In this document: piece by piece, positions 6,857 through 51,494 of the stretch
Position numbering within the stretch: position 1 is the stretch's first letter
Layout of the letters: each line of letters opens with the position of its first letter
Translations under genes and position numbers: made by a program
The notes under the pieces: generated by a model
The model's database searches: none
What the model saw: only the letters and a program-made list of their open reading frames with translations
Told to the model about the DNA's origin: nothing
From: Patescibacteria group bacterium
GTDB lineage: Bacteria; Patescibacteriota; Minisyncoccia; Phycocordibacterales; XYD1-FULL-46-19
Direction of reading: 5' to 3'
DNA length: 64,000 nt
Assembly: GCA_048617235.1 (NCBI GenBank)
Contig: JBMCHT010000001.1
Coordinates: forward strand, 118,043-182,042

Positions 6857-7019
6857 TTAAGACAAAGCTATATAATAAAAGAAAAAGGCCCCTTAGGTAT
6901 TTAGCCGTTCGGGTCCTTTTTCGTCTTGATATCTATATAGTTACAAATTTACAGAAAAAGTCAAGTATTATAGGTAATGTGTACACTCTTTTGGCACACT
7001 TTATTTTTCTTTACATTAG

Positions 7020-7334
7020 CTCCGCGGGCAGGACTCGAACCTGCGACCAATCGATTACACTTATCCTAAAATTACTTCTAGGGGTGGACTATATCATCAT
7101 CATATTTGTAAAAAACAAACTTAGATGCGAGGCGCTTCCCCTCCGATATTTTCGGAGAGTACTCCTAAAAAGGATAGTCTCTGAACCTTCCCTATCTATA
7201 ATTATTATCAGGGCTTGGCTGCTGATTGCCCTATTAGGGTTTCCAGCAATTCACCTCGTTATTCACCTTTAGATTTCTCTAAAGGGCTGCAACTAACTTA
7301 CAGTCGACCGCTCTACCAACTGAGCTACCGCGGA
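7020..7334 (-). tRNA. tRNA-Asn(GUU) interrupted by a group I intron in the anticodon loop. Exon 1 is 7300..7334, exon 2 is 7020..7057.
   Basis: Minus-strand 5' exon: UCCGCGG-UA-GCUC-AGUUGGUA-GAGC-G-GUCGA-CUGU. This gives a canonical D-arm, G18G19 and U33. Minus-strand 3' exon: UAA-UCGAU-UGGUC-GCAGG-UUCGAGU-CCUGC-CCGCGGA-G. This gives the T-arm GGUUCGAGUCC and an acceptor fully complementary to the 5' strand. Joined, the loop is CUGUUAA with U1-A72 and G73, matching E. coli tRNA-Asn. A separate intact tRNA-Thr(UGU) exists at 50634..50706, which argues against the Thr alternative. Confidence 0.65.
7058..7299 (-). ncRNA. group I self-splicing intron, about 242 nt, no ORF
   Basis: The 5' splice site follows U35. 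P1 forms between exon CUGU and the intron GCAG, with a U-G wobble at the splice site. P2 hairpin is CCUUUAGA-GAAA-UCUAAAGG. P3 is UGAAU/GUUCA. The catalytic-core P7 is ...UUCAGAGACUA... paired with ...UAGUC.... P8 hairpin is UCCU-UUUU-AGGA. A terminal omega-G sits at 7058. Confidence 0.65.
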
Positions 7335-7397
7335 ATATTTAATTTAATAAAGACCAACTGTCTAAATACTAGCAAAAAGAAATAAAAAAGCCAAGAG

Positions 7398-48893: not shown

Positions 48894-48986
48894 TTTGCTA
48901 TATTTTAAAAGTTATTATCAGATTTTCATTCTAGCAAAAAAACACAGAAAAATAAACATTATTTTCAGATTTAAAACTTTTTGATT

Positions 48987-50144
48987 CTAATCACCATCTA
49001 TATGAGTATTATAAAAAATATCCACATATTCTTTATAAATATAGGAACGATTATATTTTTTTCTTGCATCACGTAAATACAAAATACCAATATCCACAAA
49101 ACGGTCAATAAGTTTCTGTGCTCCGTTAACACTAAATCCCGTCCAATTTCGTATTGTATTAACATCTATAATTGGTAATGAAAAAAGACGTGGCAATACT
49201 TGGATTGAACTTTTTGAAGCACGTTTATCCATATTTTGTATTTTCAAAATATCTTTTTCACGAAGTTTTGTGATTTTGTGAACTGTTTCAATCGCCTCTT
49301 CTGCAGTTTCTGTAATACCTGAGAGAAAAAATTGAACCCAAGCTTCAATATCACCGTCATGATATCCATTAAGACGATCATAATAAACTTTTTGATGCTT
49401 CTTTAAAAATGACGATAAAAACAAAACCGGCTTTTCTAATAAACCGGATTCTCGAAAATAAAGAGTAGTCAACATTCGTCCCGTTCTTCCGTTTCCATCC
49501 CTAAAAGGATGAATCGTTTCAAATTGTGCATGTAAAATAGCCGCTTTTGTCAGAGGCAATAAAGAGTCATCTTGATGAACGAATTTTTCCCAATCACTAA
49601 CTACTCGAGGCAATTCATGGGTTGGAGGAGGCACAAATTTTGCATCTTGTGGACGAGTACCGTTAATCCAATTCTGATCATGACGAAATTCTCCCAGACG
49701 AGCATTATGCGTCACCCATGTTCTTTCCATTAATTCACGATGTATTAATTTAATTAAACGTGTACTGATTGGAATCTTTTCCAAAGCCTTAATTCCATTA
49801 TTTAAGGCTTTAATATAATGTATGATATCATCAACATCTTCCGGTAAATTTGCATCAATGTTCGCTTCCGCTTCCAAAGCGTCAATCATAGTTGCTCCCG
49901 TACCTTCAATTTGACTGGAAGAAGCGGCATCTTTAAGAATATACATAAAAATAAAAAAATCCACATCAGGTAATAGTTGAGTTATTCCATCTAATTTACT
50001 GACAAAATGTTGAGCTTTTGAATCTTGTTTGATAAGTTCAGGAGAAAAATTAAAACCACCTTTTGGTGGAAAAGGTGTTGGTATAAAGGCTTTATATACC
50101 CCCCATTGTCCATCTTTTTGTTGTATAAAATTTCCTAATTTCAT
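48987..50144 (-). CDS. Fic/DOC family protein
   Basis: The canonical Fic motif HPFRDGNGRTGRML (HPFx[D/E]GNGR). 385 aa. Confidence 0.85.
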   Translation of the reverse strand: MKLGNFIQQKDGQWGVYKAFIPTPFPPKGGFNFSPELIKQDSKAQHFVSKLDGITQLLPDVDFFIFMYILKDAASSSQIEGTGATMIDALEAEANIDANLPEDVDDIIHYIKALNNGIKALEKIPISTRLIKLIHRELMERTWVTHNARLGEFRHDQNWINGTRPQDAKFVPPPTHELPRVVSDWEKFVHQDDSLLPLTKAAILHAQFETIHPFRDGNGRTGRMLTTLYFRESGLLEKPVLFLSSFLKKHQKVYYDRLNGYHDGDIEAWVQFFLSGITETAEEAIETVHKITKLREKDILKIQNMDKRASKSSIQVLPRLFSLPIIDVNTIRNWTGFSVNGAQKLIDRFVDIGILYLRDARKKYNRSYIYKEYVDIFYNTHIDGD

Positions 50145-50265
50145 AGCAATAAAAATTAGTTAATATTATAATATATCAATATGCACTATCTTAACAATTA
50201 GTTATATTTAATGCAAGCAATTATCACTAATTACCTTTCCAAATTCTAATTAATGTCCCACAATC

Positions 50266-50633
50266 TTCGTGAGCCGGAGAGAGGACTCGGTGTCAGCTCA
50301 CCTGGCTATAATTCTTCGCTTTGCTTGAATTCTAGCCGGTGGCTCCTACCCGGGCTCGCGGTCTCGCTCAGCTCGACAACGCTCCGCCTTTCTCGTCCTC
50401 ACGGATGAGTATAAATACTCATCCTTCTCCGGTCTCACTCACGATGTTCGTGAGCCGGAGAGAGGACTCGGTGTCAGCTCACCTGGCTATAATTCTTCGC
50501 TTTGCTTGAATTCTAGCCGGTGGCTCCTACCCGGGCTCGCGGTCTCGCTCAGCTCGACAACGCTCCGCCTTTCTCGTCCTCACGGATGAGTATAAATACT
50601 CATCCTTCTCCGATCTCACTCACGATGTTCGTG
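50266..50633. repeat. two tandem 181-bp GC-rich direct repeats, each carrying a copy of the tRNA-Thr 3' end (att-like)
   Basis: The segment cgtgagccggagagaggactcgg recurs at about 50271, 50452 and, within the tRNA, 50632. The period is exactly 181 bp. The two full units differ by a single base (ccggtctc versus ccgatctc). Unit GC is about 55%, and each unit carries an internal perfect hairpin gatgagtat-tta-tactcatc. Confidence 0.8.
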
Positions 50634-50706
50634 AGCCGGAGAGAGGACTCGAACCCCCAACCTACCGCTTACAAAGCGGTTGCTCTACCAATTGAGCTAC
50701 TCCGGC
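50634..50706 (-). tRNA. tRNA-Thr(UGU)
   Basis: Minus strand: GCCGGAG-UA-GCUC-AAUUGGUA-GAGC-A-ACCGC-UUUGUAA-GCGGU-AGGUU-GGGGG-UUCGAGU-CCUCU-CUCCGGC-U. This is a full cloverleaf with anticodon UGU. Confidence 0.85.
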
Positions 50707-51038: not shown

Positions 51039-51494
51039 TTAAGCTCCCACTTCCAAACGAGAAATTTTAACAACATTTACTCTTTCTCCAAATTTTTGAG
51101 TGGCTTCTTTAATCACATCAGCTATTGTCTGTTCCGGATTTTTAATATACGGCTCAGCTAGAAGACTATCAATATCCTCAGAACCGGTAGCAGTCAAATG
51201 CATAGCCAAATCATTAGCCACTTCTATAAATTCAGGATTTTTAGCTACAAAATCCGTCTCACAAGCCAATTCCACCAAAGATCCGATTAAAAGATTGTTA
51301 TGAACATAAGAACCCATTACCCCCGAACCCAATTCTCTGTCAGCTTTCTTATTGGCAATTTCGGCTCCTCTGGCTTTTAATGACTCTAAGGCTTTATCCA
51401 TATCTCCGGCAGCTTCCTCCAAGGCTTGCTTGCATTGAGCAATAGAGATACCGGTTCTGTTTCTAAGTTCTTTTATTTGTTCAGTCGAAGACAT
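51039..51494 (-). CDS. tsf: elongation factor Ts (short form)
   Basis: IKELRNRTGISIAQCKQALEEAAGDMDKALESLKARG is the UBA-like N-terminus of EF-Ts. The 151-aa size matches the short CPR-type EF-Ts. Confidence 0.85.
   Translation of the reverse strand: MSSTEQIKELRNRTGISIAQCKQALEEAAGDMDKALESLKARGAEIANKKADRELGSGVMGSYVHNNLLIGSLVELACETDFVAKNPEFIEVANDLAMHLTATGSEDIDSLLAEPYIKNPEQTIADVIKEATQKFGERVNVVKISRLEVGA

Follow-up and report, generated by a model that had tools for sequence, protein, structure and literature searches.

A gene for tRNA-Thr(UGU) is followed by two tandem units of 181 bp each in the genome of a Patescibacteria group bacterium (assembly GCA_048617235.1, contig JBMCHT010000001.1). The window, that is, the whole stretch of 64,000 nucleotides that was analysed, holds these units between the tRNA gene and a gene of the Fic family. 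They are copies of an unannotated, widespread family of GC-rich (guanine- and cytosine-rich) non-coding elements of about 135-200 nt, which lie directly 3' of tRNA genes and on the tRNA strand. The parts of the array are given here in the order in which they are read on that strand; the flanking genes are taken up further on.

50634-50706, minus strand: tRNA-Thr(UGU), found by ARAGORN and matched by the Rfam tRNA model (71 bits); CCA is not encoded
50634-50651, minus strand: R0, the last 18 nt of tRNA-Thr(UGU) and the source of the repeated sequence
50453-50633, minus strand: unit 1, one complete element of 181 nt (Tandem Repeats Finder; covariance model R1, 95.7 bits, E 3.5e-21; predicted minimum free energy -74 kcal/mol, z -5.2)
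50621-50633, minus strand: linker hairpin L1 of unit 1 (CACGAACAUCGUG), its predicted stem extending to CUCACGA/UCGUGAG; hairpins of the L1 type occur throughout the family
50607-50617, minus strand: segment A of unit 1 (GAGAUCGGAGA), antisense to the acceptor 3' strand and pairing with the 3' half of R
50584-50605, minus strand: hairpin H1 of unit 1 in the predicted fold, 9 bp with a UUUA loop
50573-50581, minus strand: segment B of unit 1 (GAGGACGAG), antisense to the T-stem 3' strand and the 3' half of the T-loop, pairing with the 5' half of R
50534-50572, minus strand: junction GAAAG and hairpin P2 of unit 1 (GGC / GGAGCGUU / GUC...GAC / CGCGA / GCC), the most conserved part of the family
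50471-50533, minus strand: P3 of unit 1, a long variable hairpin in the predicted fold with GCAAAGC/GCGAAG in its terminal loop
50453-50470, minus strand: R1, a sense copy of tRNA C56-U73 that is exact over all 18 nt and pairs along its full length with B and A in the predicted fold
50272-50452, minus strand: unit 2, 181 nt, 180/181 identical to unit 1 (covariance model R1, 96.9 bits), with the same parts shifted by -181
Parts of unit 2, minus strand: L1 50440-50452; A 50426-50436; H1 50403-50424; B 50392-50400; P2 50353-50391; P3 50290-50352; R2 50272-50289
50253-50271, minus strand: a diverged L1-like trailer after R2 (CACGAAGAUUGUGGGACAU), seen in the comparison at period 181, which is either the native trailer of the tRNA or the beginning of a truncated third unit

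The array behind tRNA-Thr(UGU)

A first-pass annotation, made from the sequence alone, had described two 181-bp units with one mismatch on the 3' side of the tRNA gene. Tandem Repeats Finder agrees (period 181, 2.2 copies, 98% matches, zero indels), and so does a direct comparison of 50632-50452 with 50451-50271, in which the single difference is U versus C at 50613/50432. This difference falls in segment A opposite a G and exchanges a U.G pair for a C-G pair. The pair of units seems to be a very recent duplication or a double insertion.

The repeated part of the tRNA is CGAGTCCTCTCTCCGGCT, which runs from C56 to U73, that is, from the middle of the T-loop to the discriminator. It occurs in exactly three copies spaced by 181 bp, with a chance expectation of 0.01, and none of 100 shuffles reaches three; the threefold direct repeat at an exact period is thereby borne out. 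The copied part had first been put at about 22 nt and has to be shortened to 18, while the 6 flanking nucleotides stand. Together with this CACGAA flank the exact repeat is 24 nt long, and past the last copy a weaker similarity continues for about 13 nt more. Also as first described, the units are GC-rich (0.55-0.57, versus 0.365 for the window) and contain a perfect hairpin, GGAUGAGUAUUUAUACUCAUCC, with a 9 bp stem and a 4-nt loop, which is H1.

When the whole region is folded in silico (-208.7 kcal/mol, z = -9.9), the cloverleaf of the tRNA is preserved. Within a unit, R is predicted to pair over its entire length, the 5' half going with B and the 3' half with A. The open reading frames (ORFs) within the units are all spurious. 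On the plus strand between 50253 and 50741 the GC-rich units give rise to such frames of 51-73 aa, one of them entering the tRNA, and these are possible gene miscalls.

A structured family behind many tRNA genes

The first-pass annotation had allowed that the unit might occur nowhere else. It occurs widely, with a conserved core. A scan of species-representative genomes with the 18-mer gave 23 loci, mostly tRNA-Thr genes of Patescibacteria, with a single copy each. One of them, L008 from a Campbellbacteria metagenome-assembled genome (MAG), has a diverged homologue of the unit directly after tRNA-Thr (blastn E = 7e-8), and its gene order is that of the window: S2, EF-Ts, a small membrane protein and tRNA-Thr. 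The sequence of its H1 differs from that of the window with the pairing kept. Looking up homologues of EF-Ts added three syntenic loci. In L026, from a Parcubacteria MAG, a unit is present, and its A and B follow the different tRNA-Thr sequence of that genome; L027 and L029 have no unit.

Metagenomes were searched with sequence patterns. A first pattern (CTCCGGCTCAC..GTGAGTGAG) gave zero matches, and a second, combining the T-loop with the conserved motif GAAMGSCGGAG..GUC, retrieved 51 loci, of which about 40 are true. The pattern-found loci hold 48 units, placed after tRNAs for Thr, Pro, Gly, Gln, Ile, Glu, Trp, Leu, Arg, Lys, Ala, Ser, Val and Cys. A covariance model, which is not anchored in the tRNA, was then trained on 26 complete units and run against 504 kb of fetched metagenome and MAG contigs. 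Nearly all of its 73 matches lie directly 3' of a co-oriented tRNA, with at least 14 amino-acid identities represented, and some tRNA clusters carry a unit after every gene. A few units, at about four sites, have no tRNA adjacent or upstream in the array. In the window, the model finds just the two known units. Three members (those of the window, L008 and L026) carry a taxonomic label, and all three are Patescibacteria.

Divergent subtypes escape the covariance model, for example in the Lys-Leu spacer of L038. A variant subtype lies in L009 (3677-3800), L062 (9017-9194), L039 (3202-3399) and L038 (1652-1813, minus strand), and its order is a tRNA or R copy, a terminator-like hairpin, an antisense R copy that is unbroken by H1, and GAAAGG(C)GGAG. 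In the L039 variant, the antisense copy corresponds to the preceding R and does not fit the tRNA found there. In L042 (6844-7010, minus strand) a unit occurs with no tRNA detectable upstream anywhere in the 10.8-kb locus; since degenerate R-like copies are found further upstream, that tRNA appears to be lost or unrecognizable.

Rfam 15 does not contain the family. Its models match the tRNAs alone, and no further match appears with an E limit of 10 for the window region and of 0.1 for 10 other loci; the sensitive mode gives chance-level matches only. No prior description was found in open-access papers and bioRxiv, which does not prove that none exists.

All members follow a common order on the tRNA strand: L1, an antisense tRNA 3' end in two parts (A and B) that are split by H1, a core of P2 and P3, and the sense copy R. 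Across the family R represents the last 18-19 nt of the tRNA. It always starts at C56, give or take one nucleotide, and ends 1-5 nt beyond the discriminator, unless the array continues. In most members R equals the tRNA end, and in several it is decayed. Minimum free energy folding of 32 units, each independently, gives the same architecture. The invariant columns of the alignment lie in the GAAAG junction and in P2, the internal loop of which is asymmetric and has invariant bases.

Covariation was evaluated on a model-based alignment of 71 distinct sequences with 500 shuffles, five measures and slid controls. Standard pairs occupy 87.5% of the pair cells versus 61.4% in shuffles; the covariation score is 0.487 versus 0.148 in shuffles and 0.06-0.09 in the slid controls; and none of the 500 shuffles reaches the observed value on any of the five measures. 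A MAFFT alignment, which was not fitted to the structure, concurs. H1 is paired in 96% of cases, with 9-36 double changes per pair, and the pairs of P2 are kept at 98-99%, with swaps between GC and CG and between CG and UA. Furthermore, A and B vary in step with the tRNA beside them: the cognate R is among the 4 best-ranked of 46 in 25 of 46 units.

Read on the tRNA strand, the helices contain 102 G.U pairs but only 3 A.C mismatches. Of 31 units, 27 fold more stably as the sense than as the antisense strand, with a mean difference of 9.5 kcal/mol. This asymmetry, together with the stability of the sense fold, argues that the structure is selected on the tRNA-sense strand. An RNA that is co-transcribed with the tRNA would be the most natural reading of such strand specificity. 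A shared fold, compensatory changes and restriction to one strand are what is generally expected of a conserved, structured non-coding RNA, and the structured RNA array that had been offered as one explanation of the window units fits their membership of this structured family.

Two side observations concern small motifs. Mini-hairpins of the form GC-NNN-GC (GCGAAGC, GCGUAGC, GCAAAGC) and a GAAC-N-AGYGA motif recur in the L1, P2 and P3 loops, including the P3 loop of the window at 50495-50507. Similar motifs also trail tRNAs that have no unit, as in the trailers of L014 and L015.

Turnover and possible explanations

Fifteen syntenic Patescibacteria loci share the order rpsB, tsf, tRNA-Thr, a variable interval of 0-6 kb and pheST. 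Among them, only the window, L008 and L026 have a unit, and L009 has a variant that lacks H1. Likewise, in an orthologous tRNA cluster (Cys-Leu(UAA)-Lys(CUU)-Leu(UAG)) the units follow members that vary from contig to contig, and there are filled as well as empty sites. Arrays are common and varied. L032 has three units of two subtypes, all fitting tRNA-Gly; L047 has two identical 176-bp units adjoining the tRNA and a decayed third one farther off; L076 has an array of at least five; and the arrays of L036, L058 and L061 terminate in partial units.

Parts of units seem to be exchanged as well. The cores of a tRNA-Gln unit (L035, 476-653) and a tRNA-Trp unit (L043, 3045-3158) from the same metagenome are 100% identical over 68 nt. 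The identity starts inside B, where B complements the T-loop; L1, A, H1 and the part of B that forms the stem show no relation between the two units. Core and tRNA-specific stem module thus appear to evolve or move separately. On the single contig of L040, the units of tRNA-Arg and tRNA-Val are 92% identical over 125 nt and differ in A, H1 and B. Patchy presence, arrays, shared cores and decayed R copies together argue for a turnover by gain, loss, stacking and module exchange.

The reading that we prefer, and to which we give an even chance, is that the family is a non-autonomous, structured element that homes to tRNA 3' ends and is probably co-transcribed with the tRNA. A tRNA-targeting miniature element had been among the first explanations proposed for the window units, and it fits their membership of a large family of structured elements behind tRNA genes. 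Starting from the observed family, its fold, its linkage to tRNA genes and its patchy, array-forming distribution, we infer the following course. Element and tRNA would be made as one transcript that folds into a closed multi-branch RNA, in which A and B would fully sequester R and so keep the extra tRNA 3' end from disturbing the folding of the tRNA; because the element closes on itself in this manner, the extra end would be harmless. The element would be selfish, and would be gained, lost and stacked at tRNA 3' ends, the sequences of which are the same in very distant genomes. Recombination between R repeats, by Campbell-type insertion and excision or by unequal crossing-over, would build and reshape the arrays. 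An enzyme, if there is any, would act in trans. A and B could perhaps be matched to a new tRNA by templated correction of the inverted repeat against R.

Several points weigh against this preferred reading. Mobility is read from the distribution, since the searches turned up neither a mobility enzyme nor a free form or donor copy. The loci were gathered with a tRNA-anchored pattern, which biases the sample towards tRNA linkage. The reading does not explain by what route A and B are fitted to each new tRNA. The conserved structure and the conserved loop bases of P2 could equally mean a function that is useful to the host, and identical cores within a genome could come from gene conversion rather than transposition. 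Finally, the top strand of single-stranded DNA would tolerate G.T pairs just as RNA tolerates G.U pairs, and in DNA, loops of the GCGAAGC kind are known for their exceptional stability.

The main rival, a serious candidate that we find on balance doubtful, is such a host-beneficial function, namely a cis-acting RNA module of tRNA transcription units. Its closed, exonuclease-resistant structure could mark the linker as the point where an endonuclease enters, could shield or terminate the precursor, or could use the conserved P2 loop to bind a processing protein, and A, B and R would match the tRNA through co-evolution or homogenization. The fixed position and orientation behind tRNAs, also between the genes of tRNA clusters, agree with such a module, as does the strong conservation of structure and P2 sequence over deep divergence; the absence of a linked mobility gene points in the same direction. 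Canonical terminators behind R in several loci are compatible with one transcript. The B segments of L076 and L035 are a closer fit to the R that follows them than to the tRNA, which hints that pairing inside the unit is under selection. An encoded CCA is missing from almost all the tRNAs of these loci, a property that would suit a processing module; however, tRNAs that have a unit do not differ in CCA status from those that have none. No unit is present at the majority of the orthologous tRNA-Thr loci, nor at many of the tRNAs on the same contigs. Furthermore, arrays of 2 to at least 5 units, some of them composed of unlike units, have no obvious purpose in processing, R copies are decayed in several loci, and a processing signal has no evident need for a copy of the tRNA 3' end.

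It could also be imagined, as a far-reaching form of the selfish element, that these elements form a mobile class of a new kind, built on RNA structure. Through A and B, the RNA of the element would recognize tRNA genes or their transcripts, and it would guide or itself catalyse insertion in the T-loop (T55|C56) by way of an undescribed trans-acting enzyme or ribozyme activity, thereby duplicating the tRNA 3' end and leaving the host tRNA intact. We regard this form as unlikely.

Three further explanations are much less likely than either the selfish element or the host module. The first, which we consider quite improbable, takes the units as degenerate leftovers of integrase-mediated integration at the T-loop: an 'attP-only' or cis-mobilizable mini-element with attL and attR arms, duplicated by accretion, the conserved parts of which would serve as arm sites for protein binding rather than as RNA. 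The tRNA 3' ends repeated in direct orientation do resemble attachment (att) sites, as was seen at first pass. They begin in the T-loop and reach to just beyond the tRNA 3' end, and the length of a unit is near the sum of the attP arms. Williams is said to have defined, in 2002, a class of att sites in tRNA genes that lie at the T-loop. Elements that accrete in tandem or are mobilizable in cis are known as well (review PMC5704250). In addition, the interval between tRNA-Thr and pheS is a variable cargo region in Patescibacteria. It was compared in the window (48900-50270) and in L003, L004, L009, L014, L023, L026, L027 and L029; L029 carries no cargo, L026 and L027 carry glycosyltransferase genes, the window carries Fic, and the remaining loci hold 2-6 kb of other genes.

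Against integration and excision by an integrase, which had been suggested early on, stands the absence of any such enzyme or larger element. The window ORFs that were checked, the unknown ones with Pfam, include no integrase, transposase, recombinase or reverse transcriptase; that the array has no integrase had been noticed from the start. No integrase recurs near the 60-odd family members, and ORF clustering within 3 kb of the units at about 45 loci gave no recurrent protein family (no recombinase, TnpB, IscB or reverse transcriptase). A larger element bounded by the same att core, which had been proposed as something to look for, did not turn up: the 23 genome loci that bear R have one copy each. 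Neither phages nor plasmids gave a relevant match in BLAST searches with the window array and with the family member of highest score, and scans of IMG/VR with the junction of unit body and R, H1, the core motif and the tRNA-anchored motif gave nothing or GC-rich coding false positives. No autonomous relative with the same ends or att arms emerged from any of these phage, plasmid, IMG/VR and genome searches. Moreover, compensatory changes and the asymmetry of G.U over A.C are unexpected for double-stranded, protein-binding arms, and an internal antisense copy of the tRNA end is foreign to att sites.

An assembly artefact, or a plain local slippage duplication without wider meaning, is very improbable. 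Short reads assemble near-identical tandem copies poorly, and the Logan contigs, which were assembled independently from the same sample, are interrupted at the repeat; the copy number of two is therefore provisional. No spurious ORF across the unit junction is on record, so the Logan assembly gave no confirmation of the tandem order. On the other hand, the contigs stop exactly at the repeat, which argues that it is real; both contig ends demand at least one full unit plus the R repeat; and the one-base difference argues for at least two distinct copies. Homologous units and arrays also occur in dozens of independent assemblies.

The genes that flank the units in the window encode the Fic protein and a 109-aa protein without a Pfam match. 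The former had been described as directly abutting the array, which it does not.

48987-50144, minus strand: Fic-family gene (Pfam Fic_N and Fic), outside the element
50165-50194: promoter-like site in the AT-rich spacer of about 125 nt before the Fic gene

A role of the units as type III toxin-antitoxin-like RNA repeats, or as another regulatory RNA serving Fic, would draw on tandem structured repeats upstream of a Fic-family gene on the same strand, and is effectively refuted by the distribution of the family: Fic is absent beside every other member, which occur in unrelated contexts, and from all syntenic loci, the Fic gene has its own promoter-like site, its product has a Fic_N domain and a motif of its own for inhibition, and the units measure 181 nt as opposed to the approximately 36 nt of ToxI. 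The motif in question is of the SxxxEG type (SSSQIEG, in the Fic_N region), which we take to be inhibitory, and it accompanies an active-site motif, HPFRDGNGRTGR; because both are present, Fic appears to be self-inhibited without need of a separate antitoxin. Among the syntenic loci Fic is present in the window only, and its adjacency is incidental: it is cargo in the variable region that flanks the tRNA.

Two other genes of the window may be mentioned here. EF-Ts (51039-51494, minus strand) has 151 aa in the window and its closest relatives and about 194 aa in the unit-bearing Campbellbacteria and Parcubacteria loci; its nearest homologue is only about 63% identical, which suggests that the genome has no close sequenced relative. 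Furthermore, at 7012-7338 (minus strand) a group I intron (Rfam Intron_gpI, 108 bits, 7065-7309) sits in the anticodon loop of a tRNA gene, the exons of which read UCCGCGGUAGCUCAGUUGGUAGAGCGGUCGACU / UGUAAUCGAUUGGUCGCAGGUUCGAGUCCUGCCCGCGGAG. This gene was missed by ARAGORN, is maybe a second tRNA-Thr(UGU)-like gene, and has no unit behind it.

If the selfish element is real, Patescibacteria genomes would hold an abundant, previously unannotated class of structured elements tied to tRNA genes, which would have found a new route to exploit the most conserved sequence of a genome, the tRNA 3' end, without damage. Annotation would gain a new RNA family for GC-rich islands that now give spurious ORFs and break assemblies. 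The segments that track the tRNA would imply either an undescribed RNA-guided or template-copying insertion or an undescribed step of tRNA maturation in reduced bacteria. Either outcome is open to direct testing by transcriptomes and in vitro processing assays.

Comparison with known systems

A number of known RNAs and elements were considered as identities of the unit and rejected. Transfer-messenger RNA (tmRNA), signal recognition particle RNA, 6S RNA and RNase P RNA have the wrong size and motifs and are negative in Rfam. A T-box gives no model match, and the complementarity falls on the wrong part of the tRNA. Integron attC sites and IS200/IS605 ends are discarded as their conserved core or cleavage motifs are absent, and a Casposon-like target-site duplication as terminal inverted repeats and Cas1 are absent. 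Snap-back copying of the tRNA end leaves H1 between A and B unaccounted for. The unit is also not a tRNA, a tRNA-like structure or a tmRNA, with R paired through the discriminator and ARAGORN negative; since the copy starts at C56, the 5' strand of the T-stem is missing from the unit.

The remaining likenesses are partial. The att sites of tyrosine integrases in tRNA genes, and the related cis-mobilizable elements (CIMEs), share with the units a direct repeat of the tRNA 3' end from the T-loop onwards, serial repeats and small, integrase-less units with att-like flanks. Because the direct repeat begins in the T-loop, the tRNA is regenerated, and the window units are indeed flanked by direct repeats like attL and attR, in three exact 24-nt copies spaced by 181 bp. 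In contrast to these sites, the family has no integrase or cargo nearby, its units are 135-200 bp long, it has a covarying single-strand fold and an antisense tRNA end, and one core is shared over at least 14 tRNA identities. Miniature inverted-repeat transposable elements (MITEs) and the REP/BIME, Correia and ERIC/BOX repeats resemble the units in being short, non-coding, multi-copy, hairpin-rich, enzyme-less and often co-transcribed with their neighbours. However, the units are tied to tRNA 3' ends in a fixed orientation, with termini that change with each tRNA, and neither constant terminal inverted repeats nor a short target-site duplication nor a partner transposase was found for them.

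Compact structured RNAs beside tRNA genes are also known from phages, where 'theta' ribozymes, similar to that of hepatitis delta virus (HDV), adjoin the tRNA genes (PMC10879173), and a role in tRNA maturation is conceivable for both. The units nevertheless match no HDV-like or other ribozyme model, are 2-3 times larger, combine sense and antisense tRNA ends, and are found in bacterial contigs, not in phages. The primer-binding sites of retroviruses, long terminal repeat elements and retrozymes likewise comprise an 18-19-nt complement of a specific tRNA 3' end, and small tandem units occur there as well. In the units, however, the complementarity is split by a hairpin, is paired internally to the sense copy, and enters the trailer in L031 and L032, and no reverse transcriptase is linked or recurrent. 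A retroviral-type primer-binding site was rejected because segment A pairs in these two loci with the genomic trailer (CAA, CAAUAU) instead of CCA.

The bridge RNA of IS110 and the omega RNA of TnpB and IscB are structured RNAs of 150-200 nt, encoded at a mobile element, with segments that match the insertion target, a description into which the units would fit. They differ in that no recombinase, TnpB or IscB lies beside the units, and in that the target-matching segments of the units form a mutual stem instead of open guide loops. Finally, tRNA-like structures and tmRNA have 5' and 3' ends that form a helix, and in the units, too, the 3' strand of this helix is a genuine acceptor and T-stem strand. 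The units have no T-loop or elbow, their discriminator and trailer are paired, and they are not called by ARAGORN and Rfam, unlike these RNAs.

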